Part shown: piece after piece, positions 4,495 to 55,928 of the stretch
Layout: each line of letters opens with the position of its first letter
Position numbering within the stretch: position 1 is the first letter of the stretch
NCBI GenBank assembly: GCA_037308085.1
Contig: CP147779.1
Location: forward strand, 672,001 to 736,000
Length of the DNA stretch: 64,000 nt
Reading direction: 5' to 3'
Source of the DNA: Promethearchaeati archaeon SRVP18_Atabeyarchaeia-1
GTDB lineage: Archaea; Asgardarchaeota; Atabeyarchaeia; Atabeyarchaeales; Atabeyarchaeaceae
Made by a program: the position numbers and the translations under genes
The notes under the pieces: generated by a model
Seen by the model: only the letters and a program-made list of their open reading frames with translations
Database searches by the model: none
Told to the model about the DNA's origin: nothing

Positions 4495-5325
4495 CTAGAA
4501 GTAGTCTGAGATCTCCTCTTCTTCATTCCTTTGAGTTTTGCGAAGTACCTCGGAGCATTTCCTGGGATTTAATCGCTTATATTCTAGATTAAGCAATGCT
4601 ATGCTTTTCTGGGTTCCCTTAGCCATGCTCTCTGCTATCAGTATCCCCCTTGCACTTGGGTCTCCTTTTCTAATGGTCTCCACGTATCTTGATAATTGCA
4701 GTGCAGCTTCTTTTGTTGCTTTTCCTCTCTTGATCTCGATAATTGTGTAGTTCCCGTTCCTGTCCTTTCCGAATATATCTGCGAAGCCAGTGGGCATTTC
4801 CTTCTCTGATGTTATGGGGACGAAGCCTTCCTCAATCAAACTGGGATCACAGAGGATCGCCTTCTTCATTTCCAACTCAGAGCCGTGCATGAGTATCTCG
4901 CTTTCGTCGGACAGTCCTAACACGCATACCAAGTAGAGTTTTGAAAAGGTGATCTTGACAGATTCCAGAGGCCTCATTCTTACAGCTGTAACCTCTAACC
5001 TGTTGTCTGAGTGTTGCTCAACTCGGAACCTGCATCCTGTTGGTTGCCAGTTCACGGGTCGATATCCGTGGCTACGGTGTATTATGAGGGCCTTGTCTGC
5101 GGTTATCAGTACGACCCTCTCACCCGCTCCCAGTGCTGAAGAGGCACGACCCTTGTAGAGTATCTCGCATAGCCCTATTATTATTACGGCTTTCGCCTTC
5201 CTTAAAGCATCTTGAACTAGGTTCTTTGCGTAATCAACGGAGGGATTCGCACTTATCTCAACAGGTCTTTTTGAATTCAAGCGATCAGATACACCTTCCT
5301 TTGATCGAAAAGGATCTTTCGGCAT
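4495..5325 (-). CDS. nucS: Mismatch-specific endonuclease NucS/EndoMS
   Basis: YKGRASS, RPVNWQP, nuclease motif ADIFGKD...IIEIKR...QLSRY; start uncertain. Confidence 0.92.
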   Translation of the reverse strand: MPKDPFRSKEGVSDRLNSKRPVEISANPSVDYAKNLVQDALRKAKAVIIIGLCEILYKGRASSALGAGERVVLITADKALIIHRSHGYRPVNWQPTGCRFRVEQHSDNRLEVTAVRMRPLESVKITFSKLYLVCVLGLSDESEILMHGSELEMKKAILCDPSLIEEGFVPITSEKEMPTGFADIFGKDRNGNYTIIEIKRGKATKEAALQLSRYVETIRKGDPSARGILIAESMAKGTQKSIALLNLEYKRLNPRKCSEVLRKTQRNEEEEISDYF

Positions 5326-5434
5326 GCGGCAAGACCATGGAGATACGAGAACAGGCTTCAATGGTTTCTGTGCTTATCCGTAATCAATACTTGGAGACTG
5401 GTCAGCGACAGGATGCGTAACACGTCTCGATATC

Positions 5435-20486: not shown

Positions 20487-20578
20487 TGGAGCCGCCGGCG
20501 AGAGTCGAACTCGCGACCACCAACTATCATGTTTCGTGATTACAAGGCTGGCGCTCTGACCGACTGAGCTACGGCGGC
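20487..20578 (-). tRNA. tRNA-Thr(TGT) with canonical 37/38 intron (20526-20540)
   Basis: GCCGCCG...CCAGC-CT-TGT-A^A-GTTGG...GTTCGACT...CGGCGGCTCCA. Confidence 0.93.
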
Positions 20579-26147: not shown

Positions 26148-26497
26148 GGGGTTATGGTCCTAGGCGGGGGGCTAGGGACTCAGGTCGAAACCTCGCTTGG
26201 GCTAGAACTCCCCTGTACCGCAAACGCCCTATACGGCGGGCCGAATGCCGGCTTGAGGGGCTCCGAGCGCCCACGCAGCCTTCACCAAGGAGCGTGAAGT
26301 CTCGCCCTGGAGGGTGTCTGGTGGTCGAACGTTTCCCGTAGGGGAAATGGAGAAGACTGTTACAGGCAAATCCGACTAGGGCCGGGAGGCAGCAGTCGTA
26401 AGCTTGGCTAGGTGCGCTTCCAGGATCACGGGATGGATTTCCTCGGAGAGGGTGTTGGTGGACGTGAGGGACTTCGAGAGTCGGGGGCCATAACCCC
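26148..26497 (+). ncRNA. ffs: Signal recognition particle (7S) RNA with a putative 30-nt BHB intron (26178-26207)
   Basis: Helix 1 GGGGTTATGGTCC / GGGCCATAACCCC; Alu UGUA motif; helix 6 TTTCCC-GTAG-GGGAAA; helix 8 CGACT-AGG-GCC-GGGA-GGC-AGC-AGTCG. Confidence 0.92.
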
Positions 26498-46851: not shown

Positions 46852-49800
46852 TTACTCCTTGTCCCTGTCTTCTTCGAGAGTTAGAAGCTGCTGTTGTGAT
46901 TCCTTCGGTCTCCCCGATTTCAGGTTGCTCCATTCTGATTCTTCAAGCGTCACCCCAACTTGCTCGTAGATGCTCTTGGCGATCTCGCGTCCGATAGTCG
47001 GTATTGAGAGAAGCTGGGAAGGCTTTGAATTCCTTAGGTCACCAACAGTCTTGAAACCGGCGTTGAACAGCATTCTCGCTCTCACCCTGCCTATCCCCTT
47101 CAAGTTCACGAGCTCAAGCAGTTCCTCCTTTACTCCTTCCACGATACGTCTTCTCAGATTCATCGCAAGCGGTAACACATCCTTCCTGCCTAGGAGTTTT
47201 GCGATCTCATAGGTTGAGTAGAGAAGCCAATCCGCTGATTCCACATATCTGAAAATATCTCCTGAGCCAACATCGAAGTTCTCGATGATGCCCTCTTCAG
47301 GGGACTCCTCCATCCATGACAATAGTAACCGAGTCGTCTTGACTTCCGAGAGGAACTGTTCATACTCCACCGGATTGCTCCAAGGATCAGGGACATCCAC
47401 AAGGAATTCGCTGACCGACTCATCCACGAAGGACTCCATCTCCTTGTAGTCCTTCCTTCTCAGGAAAATTGGCTCCATGTCAGGAGTGTGACACATCATG
47501 TGAATCACGCCGATTGCCGTCTTGATCCTGCTACTCTGTATGCTATCTCTAATGATCACAGCCGACTTCGGATCGATGTACAGTTCAGACACCCTGCTCC
47601 CAAAGGGGGTTGCCGCTAATCTTCTTCCCCTCGACTCCTTGAGCATGTTCTCGGAAACCAGAAACTCCAGGACAGTCTCAATCACACCTTCGATGTCCTT
47701 AGGATCATATTGATGACCATAGAAGGTCCTGCCGATGAAACTCAGGATTTCCTCTTGGCTGTTTGCCAGACCCATAGCTACAGACGAAAGAATGTGCGAC
47801 CTGAGGACCGACTCCTTACCAAGCTTCGACCATATCTTCTCAGGCTCCCCGTAAACGTACGTTTCAAGCAGAGTCGCCCGCTCCTCATGCCCGCGCGCAA
47901 CCAGAACAGCCTCACCAATCCTGTCATACTTCGGCCTACCCGCCCTCCCAGCCATCTGCTTATACTCCAAGACCGGGATCGGGTAATACCCAAGACCAGT
48001 CTCATACCTCCTATAATTATCAATTATCACCATTCTAGCAGGAAGATTAACGCCGGCAGAGTTGTGGACTATGAAGCCATTTGCCACAAACATATGATCG
48101 TTTTCGGGTGTGTCTGGCAAAGCCACATCATAAACGTATGAATCTTGCTTGCTATTGCCTATTCTCTTGATGAAATCCCAATAAATATCTCCTTGAAAGT
48201 CATTTGCACGCCATGTTCCACGTATTCTTTGCTCCAATCTGGTTCCACATTGTGGACAAGTTTCAGGCTTGAAGAACTCATCGATATCTCTATTCTGAGC
48301 GATATAGTTCGAGAAAATCCATTTTCCGATCGGATTAAGGCTCCAGAACCATTCGTTCTTGTCGATTGTGCCGATTCTTCTCTTACTAATTAGATGGTAA
48401 TGTTGATTGAGTCTTGTTTCGTTTTTCCTAGGTTCTCTCCCAAGAATATTTCTTATTTCTCTTGATCCTAGTTCTCCTCTTTCGCCCAAGAGTTTGATAA
48501 CCAAGAGTTTCGTTTTACCCCATTGTTTTTGGACTTTGGTTCTCCCAGTGAAAAGCGATCTGTGTATCTTGTAGCCGCACTCCCTGCAAGATACGTATAG
48601 AAGGTTAGCCTCTATTCTTGATACTAATGAGTCGATTTCTCTCTGCTTGGCTGCAACATGGAACCCGACATTTCTTCCAAAATCCACAATACAGCGCCCG
48701 TCAGCAATTATCAATTCATAACTTGGCTTGGTCGAGTATTCTTTCCCTGCGGTTTTGATTACTCTCCCTCTTCTTTTCCTGATCCAAGTGACTATCCCGA
48801 ATCTTAGAAGCAGTTTTTGAACTTGGTCAATAAGCTTTCTGGAGGTGTTAGCAAATCCTACGTTTCTTCCCTTATTGACATATCCGTCGCTATCAAACAA
48901 CCCCTGCAGTAAGCTACCTATGTTTCTCTTGCTCATTGACATGAGCTCATTGTTGATGTACTTGTGTGAGCCTACTTCTACGCCGCATCGGACTAAGAAC
49001 TCTCTGAACCACTTGTTCTTGCCGAGTATGAGTTGAGGAGTTCCGTAGAAATTCACTGTTCTTCTACAACTAATTCCGAGTCTTGAACAAGTTTCTTCGA
49101 CATAAGGAAAGATCTCGGTCTTCGTGCCGACTATAGATGGGGTGCCCTTATAGTGAACCACCCCTCTCCATGTTTCAGCGCCTGAGTAACCATCTCCCAA
49201 CATTACGCCAAGGAAATATGATAATTCAGAGGAAAAGGCTAGGTCAGGGGATTCGGATCGATTATCAATAACGAAGTCGCTGATTGATGGTTGGCTAACT
49301 CTCTCTGTTTCCAAGTTTCGTACCGTAGCTATCTTGTCGGTCTCTCTTACTTCATTGGCAGGAATAACTAGTGGTCTAGTTCCACGCTTGATTAGGATCC
49401 TATGATTAGGGGTGACCTTGATAGAGCGACCTGACACTGATGATATCTCAACTAGAGGAGATGCAGAAGGGAGTCTGCTGATTTGCGAGGCTCTCACTTC
49501 GACTAGCTTGGTTCCGTTCAAGGCGTATAGGGGGTCGGAGGCGCGTAGTTCTGAGACCTCTGTTTCAGCCATTCCGTGCCATATCTTGGTGTCAGGTGAA
49601 AGGCAGAGTGTTGGGGTTGCGCATATGATCTTGACCTTGTTTTCCCTGAAGGCGGCCTCTATGATTCTCCGTTCTTGATACCTTAGGCCTGCGTGGTGGA
49701 ATGCAACGTTCCTTGATGTGAGCTCTGAGAGCATCTCAGTGACCTTGGTGACCTCGCCTGTTCTCAGGATCGAGTTTGATACCTGTTTGAGTGCTCTCTT

Positions 49801-50631
49801 CTCGGGAAGCGATATGATCGGGGCGGTGTGTTTGGCTATTCTGGATGCAAGATTCACGGACTTCTTTCTCGTGTCGGTGAATATGAGCACTTGCCCTCCA
49901 TCTCTCACCGCCTTCAACGCCAAGTCTATCGCTGCTACTCCAATCGTGTTTCGGATCTGCCTCTTCTCGCCATCGCCGAAATAGATCGCCCCTGAATCAT
50001 ATACGCCCTCCCTGAGCTTCACAGGTCGCCACCCGCTTGTTACGAGATCGGCTTTGAGCCACTTCGCTATCTCGTCAGAGTTGCTTATTGTGGCGCTCAG
50101 CGCAAGGACCTGCGCTGATGGGTTCAGCTGCATAAGCCTTGCAAGAACAACCTCGAGTGTAGGCCCTCTCTCATTCTCATTAATCAGGTGAACCTCGTCT
50201 GCAACTATCGTCGTCAGGCTACCCATCCAGTCAGCATGGTGGCGAATCAGCGAATCAACCTTCTCCGTCGTGGACACCACGAGATCAAAGTTGCGCAACC
50301 ACTGGTCCGAGCTATCCAGATCGCCGGTGGACTGCACAACCCGGACACCGATCTTCTCGTACTTCTTGAACTCCCTGTTCTTCTCGTCTGCCAGAGCCTT
50401 GAGCGGAACGAGGTAGATGGCCTTACCACCCGACTCCAATATCGATTTGACCATGCACAATTCTGCGACAAGCGTCTTACCCGACGCCGTAGGAACCGCT
50501 AGAACAAGGTTCTTACCTTCAAGAACCCCTTTCCTGATCGCATCTTCCTGAGGCGGATAGAGGTCCACATAACCCTCCTTCTCCAAGATGGCTTTGACTG
50601 ACTCGGGTACTGCTAGCTCACTGATCTTCAA
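46852..50631 (-). CDS. hel308: Ski2-like helicase Hel308/Hjm containing one intein
   Basis: PTASGKT, DEVH, LSAT, FHHAGL, ATPTL|intein|SAGVNLP, QMAGRAGR, C-terminal HhH. Confidence 0.93.
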   Translation of the reverse strand: MKISELAVPESVKAILEKEGYVDLYPPQEDAIRKGVLEGKNLVLAVPTASGKTLVAELCMVKSILESGGKAIYLVPLKALADEKNREFKKYEKIGVRVVQSTGDLDSSDQWLRNFDLVVSTTEKVDSLIRHHADWMGSLTTIVADEVHLINENERGPTLEVVLARLMQLNPSAQVLALSATISNSDEIAKWLKADLVTSGWRPVKLREGVYDSGAIYFGDGEKRQIRNTIGVAAIDLALKAVRDGGQVLIFTDTRKKSVNLASRIAKHTAPIISLPEKRALKQVSNSILRTGEVTKVTEMLSELTSRNVAFHHAGLRYQERRIIEAAFRENKVKIICATPTLCLSPDTKIWHGMAETEVSELRASDPLYALNGTKLVEVRASQISRLPSASPLVEISSVSGRSIKVTPNHRILIKRGTRPLVIPANEVRETDKIATVRNLETERVSQPSISDFVIDNRSESPDLAFSSELSYFLGVMLGDGYSGAETWRGVVHYKGTPSIVGTKTEIFPYVEETCSRLGISCRRTVNFYGTPQLILGKNKWFREFLVRCGVEVGSHKYINNELMSMSKRNIGSLLQGLFDSDGYVNKGRNVGFANTSRKLIDQVQKLLLRFGIVTWIRKRRGRVIKTAGKEYSTKPSYELIIADGRCIVDFGRNVGFHVAAKQREIDSLVSRIEANLLYVSCRECGYKIHRSLFTGRTKVQKQWGKTKLLVIKLLGERGELGSREIRNILGREPRKNETRLNQHYHLISKRRIGTIDKNEWFWSLNPIGKWIFSNYIAQNRDIDEFFKPETCPQCGTRLEQRIRGTWRANDFQGDIYWDFIKRIGNSKQDSYVYDVALPDTPENDHMFVANGFIVHNSAGVNLPARMVIIDNYRRYETGLGYYPIPVLEYKQMAGRAGRPKYDRIGEAVLVARGHEERATLLETYVYGEPEKIWSKLGKESVLRSHILSSVAMGLANSQEEILSFIGRTFYGHQYDPKDIEGVIETVLEFLVSENMLKESRGRRLAATPFGSRVSELYIDPKSAVIIRDSIQSSRIKTAIGVIHMMCHTPDMEPIFLRRKDYKEMESFVDESVSEFLVDVPDPWSNPVEYEQFLSEVKTTRLLLSWMEESPEEGIIENFDVGSGDIFRYVESADWLLYSTYEIAKLLGRKDVLPLAMNLRRRIVEGVKEELLELVNLKGIGRVRARMLFNAGFKTVGDLRNSKPSQLLSIPTIGREIAKSIYEQVGVTLEESEWSNLKSGRPKESQQQLLTLEEDRDKE
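48061..49605 (-). mobile_element. Intein (515 aa) with LAGLIDADG homing endonuclease, in Hel308 motif V
   Basis: Starts CLSPDT, block B VTPNH, LGVMLGDG and LQGLFDSDG motifs, ends IVHN followed by S. Confidence 0.93.
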
Positions 50632-50675
50632 GAGTGTCGCTGACCTCTAACAAAACCTTCAGTGGCTCGGATTAC

Positions 50676-53600
50676 TCAGGCCTTCTTCACGATCCCCTGC
50701 CTTGGCTCAAAGAGCACGCCCTCCTTGACCAACTTATTGATGGCATCCAATGCAAACTGCTTCTCTATCCCCTGAGCCGCGGCCGCTGCAACGATCTTAT
50801 CCACTTGCACGAATCCCTCCTTCGCCCCCTCCCCCAACTCGCGAACCAAAGTGATTATAAGATCAAACCTCTCACGCTGCGACTTCGTCTTCCCCACCAT
50901 GATCGTGTCAATATCAGCCCGCATGGTCTCCCTATCTATCCCCACCATCTTCAGCGAAGTAGTCATAAGGCGGATCACAGCCTCAGCGTCATCCACAGTA
51001 ATCTCCCGCTTCAATGCCATCTTCGCCCTAGACTCAGCCAACCTAACAAGAGCCTCAAGCTGCCTAGCCGTAATCGGCACAGGAGACTCAGGGTTCTCAC
51101 CCATAGCACGAGTCTCCAAGTAGAACTCCTCTATCTTCTTGGCGGCCTCATCAGTCAGCACCGGAGGCACATTCTTCTTAGCATAACTAATATACTTCCT
51201 CAAAAGCAAAGGAGCAATAGGAGCCTCATTACCAGTCGCCTTCGACGAATGCAAAGAAATCACATGCTCCGCCATCTTCCTATCCCTCTCAGACTCAGGC
51301 TTATCCACCATCACGAAAATCAAGTCAAACCTAGAAAGAACCGTAACCGGCAAATTGATGTTCTCAGCAGGATTCTTAAAACTATTATACCTACCCAGCG
51401 CCGGATTCGCAGCCGCGAGAATAGCAGTCCGAGCATTAAGCGTCGCAACAATCCCCGCCTTAGCAATCGAAATAGTGTTATGAAGCACAAGCCCGTGACT
51501 GATAAAGCAGTGATCAGGCTCTACCGTTACATCGTAAACGTATGGGCAAGACCATTTTCCTGTGTTTCTTACCTCCTCATTCCTCCTAACGCGAAGCAGA
51601 CAAATATCGCTTTGGAGCAATGCGTCAATCGCATTGATCTCCGGTTCAATAGCTGCGAGAGTCTTGCGTGCTGATTCTGTGATTGCCTCAGCCAGTTTTT
51701 TGCGGTACTCCTGCGTGTACCCTTCGTGCTCTGCATGGTATATGCGGAACTCGGTGACCCCGATCTTTCGAGCGGCAGTCACCTGAGACCAGCGGAGGAT
51801 GTTTCTTGCACTCCTAACATCTTCCGGAGCGGGATCGAGCGATTCCTTGGTCTTCAGGTATGCCTCCCTGACCTCGCCTAAGCAGGACTCAAGTAATGTG
51901 CGCGTGATGCCGTGCCCTTTCTTGGCAGCAGTCGACAAGACACCTCGGTAGGGGCGACTCAACTCCTGATATAGCTTCTTCACCCGGTCGCCGACCCCTG
52001 GCGGAAAGACATCATGGTCATAGTTAGATGCCTCAGATCGGGCCACAAGCCTGGCTATCCTTTCCTTTCGAGCGTCCCAAGGTTCAATGATAGTTCTAAA
52101 GAAGAGCGGAAGACTACTGCCGCAGATGTATACTTTGAAAGAGTCGTTATGAATATCCCGAACAATTCGGCTCTGAATGCCTGCGCACAACAGCAGATCC
52201 TGATAATCGCAGGCAAGTCCATTCGAAGCTGTCCGATAACATATGCTATCAGTTTCGACACTTCCGTCTCCCAGAAAAGCGGATTGCAGAAAGTTCAAAA
52301 CAACTTGCCTCCCAGAGGTAAACAGCTGAGGGGGAAGTCTCTTGTCGCGGGAGAGAGCTAGAACTTCTCGGAAATTGGATCTAAGCAAATCGCGTATTTG
52401 TGCAGATATATAGCGGATCTCCCTCCTCTTTTCATCATATTCTGGAGGGTCTAATCCAAAGACTTGTTTCATCAGTGTAGTGATGTCGTCTAGGATCTCA
52501 GGTGACGTATTCGAGAAACCAAACTCTGCGGACGAGCCAAAGTGGCTGAACCCCTCCGTAACAAAGTATCCCAAGATACGGGCTAACTGAGGTATCATAC
52601 GCTCTGGCAGAAGAACTGGTTTTGCATTGAAATGGACAGAGTACGGAGCGGCAAGGACAGCCCCCGGATTATGCCCGCTTGGCATCAGACGAAAGGCAGG
52701 CACAAAATCCCCGACTTCGAGCTCCGCAGCCTGCACAGTATACGACTTGTAACCGTCATAGAGAAACATCGGATGCTCGGGTGTGACAACAACCTCACGC
52801 CCATTGCTGAACCTAATCCTACGGAAACGGTCAGGAGCTCGATGCCGACTCACACGGTCTATTCGGACAGACCGAACATTACGGAGGTCAGACGTAAGGA
52901 TCTCCACACCCCGAGATCGCACATCCAAGATCTCACAATTGACTCCTTTGACCACCTCGCCTCGGCTAGCCACAAAAAGTGAGTCAACCAACTCACCAAT
53001 CGGAGTACGTACGCCATTCGCAAGTGCCACCTCCACCACGCGGTGGTACGATTGTTGCTCCATCGCTTGATGTATTGCAACCCTGTCTTGCGGATTCATT
53101 TTGTCAAACTCGTCCACCGCGGCGATGCCCCGATCTGCGAGCACAAGCGCACCGGCTTCCAAGGTCATGTCCCCGGTGTCCGCATCGCGGAGGACCGCCG
53201 CCGTGAGGCCCGCTGCTGTGGAACCCTTCCCCGAGGTGTAAAGACCTCTGGGTGCCAGCCCCGCCGTATACATTAAGAGCTGGCTGTTATGTACTATGAG
53301 GTTCCCTTCAGCGAGGATGAAATGTCCGTTTGAGGTTCCGATGTCATATACAGTTGTTTGCTCGTTCAGAAGGTCAACTTTGGTGACTTGGTCCCAGAAG
53401 ATGTCGGATTCGGCTAGTGTTTCTAGCCAGTCAAGGCAAGGAGATGCGTCGCTATCGTTCTTATCCGGGTCTAATCGTGAGATCACATTTTGCAGGTAAA
53501 CTCGACCTACGTGCTGTCTCTTTTTCTTACCTCTCAGTTCCGCTATGAAGTTCCTAGTCCAGGAATCGCGCTTACTTGTCATTCCCAGTTCTCGTGCGGC

Positions 53601-55928
53601 GCGTACCAACATTGAGCCATAGTTTGGTACTATGTCACGGGACTGGTAGCGTTTCCGAGTGCGCATGCGCTTTACGATTGATTCCAGTTTGTCTTGCTTG
53701 TTGGTTGATACAAGTCTAACCTGTTTGTGGAATGTCAGGAGGTCGGTGCCCTGTATCCTCACATGGTAGTATATGTAACCTTTGTATGGTTCCTTAGTCA
53801 CAGTGGTCTTGAAGATGCTAGCAAAGATGCCCAATGTTGCCAGTAGATCGCTCAATTGGTACGCAAGGGTTCGGCTTTTCGTTGTGCATTGTACCGCCGA
53901 TCCCTTCATGTCAATCGTTCCGTCTCCGGAGAAACAACCAGAGAGTAGTGAAAGGCGCAGAGGGTAAGGTGCAGTGAAGAATTCAGTTGGAATCTGTTTA
54001 TTTTCTGCTCCCGTTCCGAATTTCCGTTCAAACCAGGTGGCTAAGCTTGACTGGCATAGCAGGATAGAATCGTCAGTCGCTGAGAATTTACCGAAGACTG
54101 TTTCAAGATCACTCTTTAGGGAGCTTCTGATCGAATCATTACAGGCGGAAAAACGCACCGTGGTTCCTTCTACGTTGCCTTCGGCGAGATACAAGCCGAC
54201 GATTCGGCCCAATGCTGGTCCGAGTTGCAGCCATCTTGGGAACCACGTGGTGTCTCTTTTTCTGCGGAGCCATGTGCCTTTCGGGATCGAAGCGTTTCCG
54301 TTGACGATTCCGCACATCGTGTTGGCTGATATATTGCATATGGTAGCCGCTGCTCTGGCACTAACGAGATTTGACTGAATGAGGACAAGTTGTGTGTTGA
54401 TTTCCTCAGCGCTTACCAAATCTGTTTCTGGGAACTCTTCGGCTAGATCTATGAAGGGTGATCCTTCCTCTACGTCAACCTGGCGCGCTACTGGAAGGTA
54501 TGTGCCTGGGCGGAGATCTTGACCAACGATCACCTGCAACTTGCCGTCAATAATCGTTGTAAAAGAGTGATCTGGGGTAGCTAGTACCGTTCGCCCTGAT
54601 CTGGTGTGAATGCGGATTAGTCGGTCGGTTCTGTGGCGGCTAACCTCACAGATGAGTGATGACCTAGTCTTCAGGGAGAGTGGATCCATTGTCTGAGTAA
54701 ATATGGTAGCTGGGTCTCCGAGTGGAAGGATCTCTGAATCTCCTCGAAAGACCATCTCATCTCGGTGTGCTGACATCAAGCCATCGACAAGAGATCCTAT
54801 TGACTCTCTATTCCATCGCAAGGTTGAACCGCATTCTCTTCCTACATAGACCTTTTCCGTACCGTGCACGCTCTTTGCAGTTCCTGGATCCCCTATGAGG
54901 AGTACGTTTATTTCTCCTCGGATCTTGACTCCGTCTGGGAGGGTTTTTGGTACTCCTCCGAATAGGGCGAGGGCTATGGCTTCTTTGACGTCTTCGAGGC
55001 CGTAGATGGATGGGGCGATTGATTTTATTATTTTCTGGTGGATCCACTCGTCTTTGGCGAGTTCGATTATGAAGCGTTCTTCTTCTGGTGTGATCTCGAC
55101 TTTCTCGCTTTCCTTGTCCATTGTGTCGACGTAGTTTGAGTCGATGTAGGTTCTGAAGGTGGTTAGGCGGCCTCGTTTCGGGGCGAAGTCCTGTAGGGAC
55201 ATTAGTGCTCCGGTTATTGCTACGCGGTCGCCGGGTCTTGCGATGTCGACGAGGTCGTCCTTTATGATGGCGTCTAGGGATCTTGGCATCTGTCCTGGGG
55301 GGAGTTCCTCTGGCATCTCCTGTATTCTTATTTTTTGCCAGTCTACGAACTTGGAGTCTTCGACTATTAGGTTGAAGGGTCCTTCTCGTTTGCATGCGGG
55401 GCAGGTGACGGGAGGCAGGTACCTTCCCTCAAACTGCTCGACGGTTATCTTGTTGCCGCAGCTGCACTCGAATAGGGCTACGAGGAGTTGGGGCTTGACT
55501 TCGCTAACTCTTGTGATGATGCCGTCAACCATGATTAGTTTGCCAATGTGGTTCGCCCGGATCATGCGAAGCTTGACTTTTCCGGTCGTTACGTTCCTGA
55601 ACCTTGCTTTGAATTCGTGTCCGGATTCGGTAATCTTGGTGACGTAGTCGCGGTCCTCGAGTTCGACTATGGTTTTGACTGAGTCGGAGGCTGCTTTGAC
55701 GCAGTCTTCAGGATCATCGATTATCTGCCTGGCAAGCTGAGGGTCGAAGTCGAGGAGCTCATTGTAATCAATTATGACTGATCTTTCCCCGGTTACTGGA
55801 AGCCTCTGGATCGTCTCACGGTATTTCAGTGACCCAGACTCGGTGCGGAATGACTTTAGGAAGTTCTGGAATCGCTGGAACAAGTCCGCTTGTTCATCAG
55901 TGATGTCTGCGGCACTCTCATTAGCCAT
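50676..55928 (-). CDS. mcm: MCM replicative helicase containing two inteins (about 696 aa after splicing)
   Basis: Zn finger, GDPGTAK|intein|SQLL, VDEFDKM, AMEQQ|intein|TISIAKAG, SRFD, ARQLE. Confidence 0.95.
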   Translation of the reverse strand: MANESAADITDEQADLFQRFQNFLKSFRTESGSLKYRETIQRLPVTGERSVIIDYNELLDFDPQLARQIIDDPEDCVKAASDSVKTIVELEDRDYVTKITESGHEFKARFRNVTTGKVKLRMIRANHIGKLIMVDGIITRVSEVKPQLLVALFECSCGNKITVEQFEGRYLPPVTCPACKREGPFNLIVEDSKFVDWQKIRIQEMPEELPPGQMPRSLDAIIKDDLVDIARPGDRVAITGALMSLQDFAPKRGRLTTFRTYIDSNYVDTMDKESEKVEITPEEERFIIELAKDEWIHQKIIKSIAPSIYGLEDVKEAIALALFGGVPKTLPDGVKIRGEINVLLIGDPGTAKSVHGTEKVYVGRECGSTLRWNRESIGSLVDGLMSAHRDEMVFRGDSEILPLGDPATIFTQTMDPLSLKTRSSLICEVSRHRTDRLIRIHTRSGRTVLATPDHSFTTIIDGKLQVIVGQDLRPGTYLPVARQVDVEEGSPFIDLAEEFPETDLVSAEEINTQLVLIQSNLVSARAAATICNISANTMCGIVNGNASIPKGTWLRRKRDTTWFPRWLQLGPALGRIVGLYLAEGNVEGTTVRFSACNDSIRSSLKSDLETVFGKFSATDDSILLCQSSLATWFERKFGTGAENKQIPTEFFTAPYPLRLSLLSGCFSGDGTIDMKGSAVQCTTKSRTLAYQLSDLLATLGIFASIFKTTVTKEPYKGYIYYHVRIQGTDLLTFHKQVRLVSTNKQDKLESIVKRMRTRKRYQSRDIVPNYGSMLVRAARELGMTSKRDSWTRNFIAELRGKKKRQHVGRVYLQNVISRLDPDKNDSDASPCLDWLETLAESDIFWDQVTKVDLLNEQTTVYDIGTSNGHFILAEGNLIVHNSQLLMYTAGLAPRGLYTSGKGSTAAGLTAAVLRDADTGDMTLEAGALVLADRGIAAVDEFDKMNPQDRVAIHQAMEQQSYHRVVEVALANGVRTPIGELVDSLFVASRGEVVKGVNCEILDVRSRGVEILTSDLRNVRSVRIDRVSRHRAPDRFRRIRFSNGREVVVTPEHPMFLYDGYKSYTVQAAELEVGDFVPAFRLMPSGHNPGAVLAAPYSVHFNAKPVLLPERMIPQLARILGYFVTEGFSHFGSSAEFGFSNTSPEILDDITTLMKQVFGLDPPEYDEKRREIRYISAQIRDLLRSNFREVLALSRDKRLPPQLFTSGRQVVLNFLQSAFLGDGSVETDSICYRTASNGLACDYQDLLLCAGIQSRIVRDIHNDSFKVYICGSSLPLFFRTIIEPWDARKERIARLVARSEASNYDHDVFPPGVGDRVKKLYQELSRPYRGVLSTAAKKGHGITRTLLESCLGEVREAYLKTKESLDPAPEDVRSARNILRWSQVTAARKIGVTEFRIYHAEHEGYTQEYRKKLAEAITESARKTLAAIEPEINAIDALLQSDICLLRVRRNEEVRNTGKWSCPYVYDVTVEPDHCFISHGLVLHNTISIAKAGIVATLNARTAILAAANPALGRYNSFKNPAENINLPVTVLSRFDLIFVMVDKPESERDRKMAEHVISLHSSKATGNEAPIAPLLLRKYISYAKKNVPPVLTDEAAKKIEEFYLETRAMGENPESPVPITARQLEALVRLAESRAKMALKREITVDDAEAVIRLMTTSLKMVGIDRETMRADIDTIMVGKTKSQRERFDLIITLVRELGEGAKEGFVQVDKIVAAAAAQGIEKQFALDAINKLVKEGVLFEPRQGIVKKA
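51477..53051 (-). mobile_element. MCM intein 2 (525 aa, Ser-initiated, LAGLIDADG), after AMEQQ
   Basis: SYHRV..., VTPEHP, LGYFVTEG, FLQSAFLGDG, ends VLHN followed by T. Confidence 0.92.
53286..54872 (-). mobile_element. MCM intein 1 (529 aa, Ser-initiated, LAGLIDADG), in Walker A
   Basis: SVHGTEK..., ATPDHS, VGLYLAEG, LLSGCFSGDG, ends IVHN followed by S. Confidence 0.92.

Follow-up and report, generated by a model that had tools for sequence, protein, structure and literature searches.

Several processes are known to make one strand of a DNA molecule compositionally different from its complement. Replication does so along whole chromosomes, where GC and keto skew switch sign at the origin, a strand asymmetry reportedly recognised by Lobry in 1996 and in later studies. 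Transcription is associated with an excess of G+T on the non-template strand, and kataegis-type mutation clusters at double-strand breaks or break-induced replication arise in single events through deamination of C on the exposed 3′-tailed strand. Homing elements also mark their surroundings, and co-conversion tracts flank homing introns and inteins, as at the plant cox1 intron (PMC3192709) and the phage T4 elements (PMC2988022). Here we describe a pattern that shares features with each of these and departs from each, found in the mcm gene of the Asgard archaeon SRVP18_Atabeyarchaeia-1. The genome (G000) is a single 2.81-Mb contig, and the window analysed is the 64-kb stretch at genome positions 672001–736000; coordinates are those of the window unless given as genome positions. 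The silent sites flanking the two inteins of this gene are strongly and oppositely biased, and the bias is a dyad-symmetric property of the DNA strands that is anchored at the outer intein-extein junctions.

The mcm gene (50676..55928, minus strand) spans 1750 codons in its open reading frame (ORF) and translation, and contains two LAGLIDADG inteins. Its product has Pfam matches to MCM_N, MCM_OB, the MCM P-loop and MCM_lid, with two matches each to Intein_splicing and LAGLIDADG_3, and with the inteins taken out the extein motifs read GDPGTAK|SQLL and MEQQ|TISIAKAG, like those of intein-free orthologues; on sequence grounds it is an MCM replicative helicase gene with homing inteins. Intein 1 (53286..54872, minus strand; amino acids (aa) 353–881, 529 aa, Ser1...HN|S, bounded according to GDPGTAK|S...HN|SQLL) is inserted directly after the Walker-A lysine, at the MCM-a site. 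Intein 2 (51477..53051, minus strand; aa 960–1484, 525 aa, Ser1...HN|T) splits MEQQ|TISIAKAG, and the two are separated by a middle extein of 78 codons (53052..53285, minus strand).

We describe the bias by GT3, the share of codons whose last base is G or T, which has a genome mean of 0.485. In the upstream tract (54894..55688, minus strand; 265 N-extein codons, 81–345) GT3 is 0.17 (A93 C127 G38 T7; binomial 6e-27), such that 83% of sense third positions are A or C and the plus strand is G/T-rich. In the downstream tract (50769..51476, minus strand; 236 C-extein codons, 1485–1720) it is 0.88 (A7 C21 G117 T91; binomial 7e-38), with 88% of sense third positions G or T and an A/C-rich plus strand, and this is the longest run of G/T third positions in the genome. 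The first 80 codons of mcm, both inteins and the middle extein are near neutral (GT3 is 0.37 for intein 1 and 0.56 for intein 2 as a whole, and 41 of the 78 middle-extein codons end in G or T), and third positions are also mixed in the final 7 codons before intein 1, at the P-loop. The intein ends that face each other are biased, with GT3 of 0.26 in the last 50 codons of intein 1 and 0.66 in the first 50 codons of intein 2, falling deeper inside. The initial annotation had reported 35 of 40 codons ending in A or C before intein 1, 37 of 39 ending in G or T after intein 2, and a mixed extein between; these counts are exact on recounting (binomial tails of 1.7e-6 and 4.9e-10 against the genome mean), the tracts reach well beyond the ~40 codons first counted, and the flip fades over about 150–250 codons with the intein bodies spared. 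Its description of the plus strand as A/C-rich to the left of the inteins and G/T-rich to the right, with the polarity of an origin, is also correct.

Two long stop-free ORFs overlap mcm, one antisense to the downstream tract (50634..51674, plus strand, 346 aa) and one in another frame of the upstream tract (54808..55395, minus strand, 195 aa). Neither has a match in a Pfam search. In the first, codons begin with the complement of an mcm third base, which is only A or C, such that no stop is possible, and in the second, codon position 1 is mcm position 3, again only A or C, so that no codon starts with T. Both are thus stop-free because their first positions coincide with mcm third positions; we reject them as real overlapping genes and regard them as by-products of the skew, as the initial annotation had done.

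The genome contains 15 inteins in 13 genes, including RNR (two), mcm (two), atpA, Hel308, polB, polD, rpoA′, rpoB and uvrB. With all 15 boundaries fixed, we define D as GT3 of the 50 codons after an intein minus GT3 of the 50 codons before it. The mean of D is 0.33, and D is at least 0.26 at 11 of the 15, such that the flip seen at mcm recurs at most other intein sites of this genome; the same value is reached at 0.65% of 22,343 control positions in intein-free genes (mean -0.006, standard deviation 0.105; Mann-Whitney p 3e-7). The averaged GT3 profile drops from 0.49 to 0.32 nearing the intein, lies between 0.44 and 0.56 inside both intein ends, is 0.66 just downstream, and is back at ~0.5 by 250–300 codons. 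The plus-strand genes rpoA′, polB and rpoB have the same flip as the minus-strand genes, and the pattern is thus rotationally symmetric. A frame-independent scan gives ~27 regions with one codon phase at least 85% keto or amino across 60 codons, and among 20 sense G/T runs of at least 0.85 genome-wide, six lie directly past a C-terminal splice junction, in 5 of the 13 intein genes (Fisher's exact p 1.5e-8). Among these inteins there is no evident relation between the strength of the LAGLIDADG match and the size of the flip.

A second flip lies within the window. The next gene downstream of mcm encodes a Hel308-type helicase (46852–50631, minus strand) and carries its own LAGLIDADG intein of 515 aa (48061..49605, minus strand; CLSPDT...VHN|SAGVNLPA), followed directly by a tract of G/T third positions (47806..48060, minus strand). 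GT3 rises from 0.30 across the 50 codons preceding the intein to 0.84 across the 50 that follow it, and the intein-free orthologues of the two nearest relatives, the congeneric G001 and, from the same family, G002 ('Candidatus Atabeyarchaeum deiterrae' Atabeyarchaeia-2), have 0.40 and 0.40 at the corresponding stretch, with no flip.

These two relatives provide natural controls. For mcm, atpA, Hel308 and polD both carry alleles that lack the intein, and for rpoA′, polB and uvrB such alleles are found in G002. In these seven genes D ranges from 0.26 to 0.84 for the intein-containing alleles of G000, and from -0.10 to 0.18 at the homologous sites of the intein-free alleles (paired Wilcoxon p 0.008); at mcm in particular, neither relative has the flip. 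The mcm alleles inspected from other Asgard families that lack an intein at MEQQ|TISIAKAG likewise have no G/T tract past that site, and the flip in never-invaded mcm lineages that the initial annotation had named as a refutation was thus not encountered among them. At RNR, an HNH-type intein is common to all three genomes and the upstream codons are A/C-rich in all three, with a downstream G/T bias that weakens from strong in G000 through moderate in G001 to near neutral in G002, which is only a partial fit. The link between flip and intein is nonetheless well supported by the natural controls. Inteins number only one or two in G002, and the 15 in G000 suggest a recent intein expansion in its lineage; G000 also holds ~10 free-standing LAGLIDADG-like ORFs.

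The flanking sequences themselves are native. Over the first 100 residues of the mcm C-extein, aa identity is 0.84–0.86 to the same family and 0.66–0.68 to other families bearing the flip, and the skew thus evolved in place and was not imported with the intein. Silent-site identity to the other flip-bearing lineages (0.55–0.65) is modestly higher than the composition expectation of 0.42–0.44. The comparisons at mcm, atpA and Hel308 show an enrichment that arose in situ in the intein-carrying lineage and fades over some 0.5–0.8 kb. As in co-conversion, the footprint of a homing element is found in adjoining host DNA over a few hundred bp, fading with distance, and could record homing history. 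Co-conversion, however, imports donor substitutions on both sides and gives foreign-looking flanks, whereas here the flanks are native and carry a mirror-image composition bias; we therefore reject co-conversion of donor sequence from other families, as the flanks are native and the two sides are opposite and not alike.

The tracts are purer in three genomes of other families, G013 (family f12) and G019 and G029 (family f14), than in G000. In their mcm genes G/T third positions are at 0% for 140–160 codons before the first intein and at ~100% for 80 codons after the last. In G019 and G029 the first inteins are at different sites, and in each the upstream tract runs precisely up to the junction of that genome's first intein. 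The flip is of convergent origin in families f1, f12 and f14.

The MEQQ|T-site intein of G019 (mcm codons 1067–1244) is a 178-aa mini-intein that lacks an endonuclease domain, and its sister genome G029 has a 526-aa intein at this site. The downstream G/T tract of G019 persists beside the mini-intein, but is shorter.

One could suppose that the flip is coincidental or an artefact, reflecting a property of conserved motifs, co-converted donor DNA, or assembly and polishing, given that the insertion sites are the most conserved parts of these proteins and that the genome is metagenome-derived (PMC11291895). The same motifs are present in intein-free alleles without the flip, the flanks are phylogenetically native, the intact protein sequence excludes sequencing error, and all four mcm junctions are bridged by matching contigs of a wetland sample taken independently, leaving no place for an assembly junction. 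This explanation is largely refuted by these controls, and we consider it extremely improbable.

The polarity of the flips is constant. Read along the plus strand, all flips pass from an A/C-rich left side to a G/T-rich right side, and the reverse occurs within no gene. The strand running 5′ to 3′ outward from the element is thus G/T-rich and its complement A/C-rich, with the 5′ end of the G/T strand pointing at the junction. This polarity matches that of leading strands leaving an origin, of a strand resynthesised after 5′ to 3′ resection, and of outward nick translation. The pattern resembles origin skew in that the G/T-rich strand runs 5′ to 3′ from the switch point, the signal is at silent sites, and there is some spread across genes of both orientations. 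It departs from origin skew in being near-saturating, in reaching less than 1 kb at inteins, in having many switch points within genes at mobile-element junctions, in leaving the element itself unaffected, and in being missing from intein-free orthologues; an origin's skew persists along a replichore, and this one is gone within 250–300 codons. The true genome-wide keto skew is weak and turns elsewhere, with cumulative extremes near 0–0.3 Mb and 2.1–2.3 Mb, and the window lies at 0.67–0.74 Mb, away from these turning points; the chromosomal origin is rejected as an explanation. Other forms of local bidirectional synthesis could act instead, namely break-induced or recombination-dependent replication at the element or a cryptic initiation site, such that the flip would be the keto skew usual for leading strands, locally very intense. 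The origin-type polarity that is never reversed within a gene, a skew covering ~10 kb of genes around EF-2 on both strands, and the existence of conserved flips in intein-free genes would all suit this proposal; the decay within 1 kb at inteins, the weak genomic skew with the locus off its turning points, the sparing of intein bodies (unlike the passage of a fork), and the lack of skew in the relatives' intein-free alleles do not, and we think it decidedly unlikely.

Transcription-associated asymmetry would also give a keto excess with prominent A to G change, and the downstream tract fits. The upstream extein of the same transcript, however, has the opposite sign, being A/C-rich in sense, and the A/C-rich sense strand of the 5′ part of atpB adjoins a divergent gene whose sense strand is G/T-rich, so transcription is rejected as the source. 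Break-associated mutation clusters are similar in that changes are coordinated on one strand, the affected strand switches at the break point, and the scale is sub-kb to kb. They differ in having the opposite polarity; here, moreover, A to G change is at least as complete as C to T, and the state is an evolutionary equilibrium under selection. Deamination of resected 3′ tails predicts the opposite polarity and is rejected. The initial annotation had proposed a footprint of endonuclease breakage and repair; the tie between flip and intein stands, the simple 3′-tail deamination version does not, and the role of the endonuclease as cause is a matter of inference.

The bias is not one of codon choice. 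In the A/C tracts, A- and C-ending codons are about equally used in every four-fold box. Leucine is encoded 50 times by CTA and never by TTA, which genome-wide makes up ~28% of TTA plus CTA, and TTG is enriched in the G/T tracts, such that silent first positions follow the skew too. Nor is it confined to reading frame or gene orientation, as it extends through a pseudogene, all codon phases, an intergenic gap and an opposite-strand neighbour. A second copy of the RuBisCO large-subunit gene (genome 2712325–2713700, minus strand), broken into out-of-frame pieces and evidently a pseudogene, is the most A/C-biased ORF of the genome (GT3 0.12), and at this intein-free locus the 63–69% G/T of the plus strand holds for every codon phase and extends to the intergenic gap alongside. 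In G002 a plus-strand G/T-rich tract crosses from the 5′ part of atpB into a divergent peptidase-like gene, where sense G/T is 0.78. Genome-wide, sense GT3 is negatively correlated between neighbouring genes of opposite orientation (r -0.12, p 6e-4) and positively between those of the same orientation (r 0.23).

These observations bear on the possibility of selection on translation or mRNA, in which fast A/C codons before an intein and slow G/T codons after it would give time for folding or splicing, or RNA structure would be selected. Dyad symmetry fits the direction of translation equally well, the skew is seen mainly at synonymous positions, and the flips in EF-2 and atpB are stably conserved, as selection predicts. 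There is, however, no single preferred codon per amino acid, with A and C equal, and in the relatives atpA and atpB are entirely unlike each other despite equal production of their proteins, with GT3 of ~0.5 for atpA in G001 and G002 and ~0% over at least 240 codons for the co-expressed atpB. The skew is also present in the fragmented RuBisCO pseudogene and in intergenic DNA, enters an opposite-orientation neighbour in which codon meaning is reversed, and is reflected in the negative correlation between adjacent opposite-strand genes. Genes for Cas1 (genome 2224190–2225161), an RRXRR+HNH protein (817255–818310) and an integrase (2015084–2015968) are among the most A/C-biased (GT3 0.24–0.31), and the presence of mobile and defence-type genes in this group counts against expression-driven bias. 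Codon optimisation, including a translational ramp, is rejected on the same three grounds of codon preference, atpA-atpB discord and mobile-type genes. Mutation or conversion is the likelier origin, and we judge selection very unlikely to account for the pattern.

The changes involved appear to be mostly transitions. At four-fold sites, purine/pyrimidine class is conserved at 0.60–0.65 between G000 and its relatives, equal to the level between the relatives themselves, and the extra changes in G000 were thus transitions. Parsimony with G001 and G002 as outgroups gives T>C 17 versus T>A 4 and A>G 10 versus A>T 6, at silent sites that are saturated. On the G/T-rich strand A is depleted to 3% and C to 9–11%, such that A to G change is nearer completion than C to T.

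We propose, as a tentative explanation that falls a little short of an even chance, that the flips reflect recurrent repair synthesis running outward from the intein and filtered by purifying selection, with biased repair of heteroduplex as a close variant. Intein homing endonucleases would provoke recurrent breaks or nicks, either through repeated homing in a polymorphic population or through nicking of half-sites at occupied junctions. Continual homing, if that is how the intein holds out against a fitness cost, could make such events frequent. Each event would resynthesise one strand per flank, outward from the junction, and synthesis that escapes mismatch correction would make mostly G·T mispairs, such that the new strand becomes enriched in G and T. 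The intein, copied on both strands in homing, would have its errors cancelled, leaving a step at both junctions, and purifying selection would remove amino-acid changes and leave the bias mainly at the silent sites of exteins. Between two nearby inteins the opposing flank effects would cancel in the extein and spill over into the intein ends on either side of it; the mixed 78-codon middle extein of mcm and the GT3 values of its facing intein ends are as this interaction predicts. Repair synthesis and break-initiated replication look alike in the present data.

The mismatch-specific endonuclease EndoMS/NucS offers a variant with the same polarity, in which it would cut G/T-type mismatches in heteroduplex and give conversion biased to G/T on the outward strand. 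The enzyme cuts G/T, G/G and T/T mismatches and spares A/C, C/C and A/A (PMC4838380), and G/T mispairs greatly exceed C/A mispairs (PMC6159521); together these would give a biochemical reason for a skew along the keto/amino axis. A predicted EndoMS/NucS gene lies in the window (4495–5361, minus strand, with a NucS_C match at 4537–4878), and NucS is encoded in G000, G001, G002, G013, G023 and G029, i.e. in every flip-bearing family. The specificity of the enzyme thus partitions bases (G and T versus A and C) exactly as the skew does, although it is known as a corrector of replication errors and has not been credited with any local compositional effect anchored at an element.

Taken to its limit, this idea dispenses with new mutation: mismatch-type-specific processing of heteroduplex would always convert alleles to G/T on the outward strand and let A/C alleles segregate 50:50, such that recurrent recombination fixes G/T at silent sites. 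Pure gene conversion of this kind draws on the exact coincidence of the skew with the axis that EndoMS discriminates and on the occurrence of NucS in every family showing flips, with the G000 copy inside the window. As a drive-like process it would near fixation more easily than mutation pressure, and it would cover flips at intein-free recombination hot spots. It sits poorly with the presence of NucS in families f2, f3 and f4, whose intein-bearing mcm has no flip, the contigs have few variants and give it no polymorphism support, and it presupposes that the NucS of Asgard archaea would act on heteroduplex made in recombination; we regard it as unlikely, though credible.

Several observations weigh against recurrent intein-anchored repair synthesis, the first being that inteins do not always have flips and flips do not always have inteins. 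In G000, 4 of the 15 inteins show little or no flip, as do the intein-bearing mcm genes of seven other genomes and polB of G001, and in G013 the upstream mcm tract stops at the Walker-A site, 62 codons before the present intein, which may be the mark of a lost intein. Contiguous flips are present in four intein-free genes, namely EF-2, atpB, an EtfB-like gene and an acyl-CoA dehydrogenase gene, such that flips outside intein genes, which the initial annotation had taken as potentially decisive if common, do exist but are few. The EF-2 flip (genome 103468–105735, minus strand) is at codon ~618, in the diphthamide loop, and the atpB flip (genome 605058–606734, minus strand) is at ~388, within codons ~385–440; both genes have ~93–100% A/C third positions across 300–575 codons, followed by G/T. 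These two flips, as strong as those at inteins, are at the same codon in G000, G001 and G002 and are absent in other families, and their retention despite saturated silent divergence implies that they are actively maintained. Inteins are therefore a strong trigger here, but neither sole nor sufficient.

The mechanism itself is also open to objection. It draws on polarity, geometry and the transition character of the changes, from which we infer the cutting, nicking and repair that it would need. The presence of NucS does not track the flip, being found also in families without an mcm flip, nor does that of a Y-family polymerase, which is encoded in G000 and was not found in G019 or G029. The near-saturation in G013, G019 and G029 (0–5% versus 95–100% over at least 140 codons) would require a biased process at least 20–50 times background mutation, which frequent events or very error-prone synthesis alone would make plausible. 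No intein-less allele was found in metagenome contigs of the independent wetland sample, although contigs drop rare variants; the only candidate intein-less joint had a 26-letter side and is unreliable, and the few variants in these contigs are too few for a substitution spectrum. Finally, at codon positions 1 and 2 of variable residues the shift is weak, though in the expected direction (0.405 upstream versus 0.46–0.55, and 0.516 downstream versus 0.46).

Some further observations concern the intein-free loci. A 'ghost intein' at the EF-2 flip was considered and rejected, as the EF-2 matches listed from 250 Asgard genomes, with 136 others left off the listing, all have reading frames of 840 aa or less and none with an intein appeared among them. 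Between atpA and atpB lies a 1254-aa ORF with a HerA-like (DUF87) ATPase domain (genome 606738–610499, minus strand), into which the G/T-rich tract of atpB continues; atpA and atpB are 6–7 kb apart in G001 and G002, and ~1 kb apart in G013. At genome 445076–446174 a class-I (Val/Ile/Leu-type) tRNA synthetase gene has a strongly A/C-rich 3′ end, with all-position G/T down to 0.29, and is followed by ~4.7 kb of ORF-poor DNA containing a LAGLIDADG-like ORF and then by G/T-rich genes (450819–453880), the same left-A/C, right-G/T arrangement around a possible inserted element. Rfam matches in the window at the gathering threshold are an archaeal SRP RNA (26152–26493, plus strand) and one tRNA (20490–20578, minus strand) only, and are ordinary.

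The report on the wetland-soil Asgard group to which the source organism belongs gives whole-genome GC skew and does not mention inteins or local skews (PMC11291895). In the literature searched we found no description of compositional skew beside inteins or other homing elements, and the footprint is apparently undescribed. Our general proposal, offered tentatively and as somewhat less than an even bet, is that homing elements leave a saturating mirror-image transition footprint (A to G and C to T on the strand leaving the element) through error-prone one-strand synthesis or EndoMS-type repair, that this is a readable record of endonuclease activity in uncultured archaea, and that intein-free flips, as at EF-2 and atpB, mark otherwise invisible, long-lived sites of recurrent breakage or initiation in Asgard genomes.

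If the flips are a mutational or conversion footprint, they would provide a readout, from sequence alone, of the frequency and recency of the repair that a selfish element has provoked at its site, where element activity has until now been inferred indirectly, from phylogenies of presence and absence. Element-linked repair could then dominate the silent-site evolution of essential genes, including mcm, RNR, ATP synthase and polymerases, and inferences from codon usage, silent-site divergence (dS) and horizontal transfer would be distorted, with long spurious ORFs open to annotation by gene callers. The conserved intein-free flips would point to fixed sites of breakage or initiation that nothing else reveals, and the footprint as a whole would give a handle on break repair and mismatch handling in the Asgard archaea, the uncultured relatives of eukaryotes.

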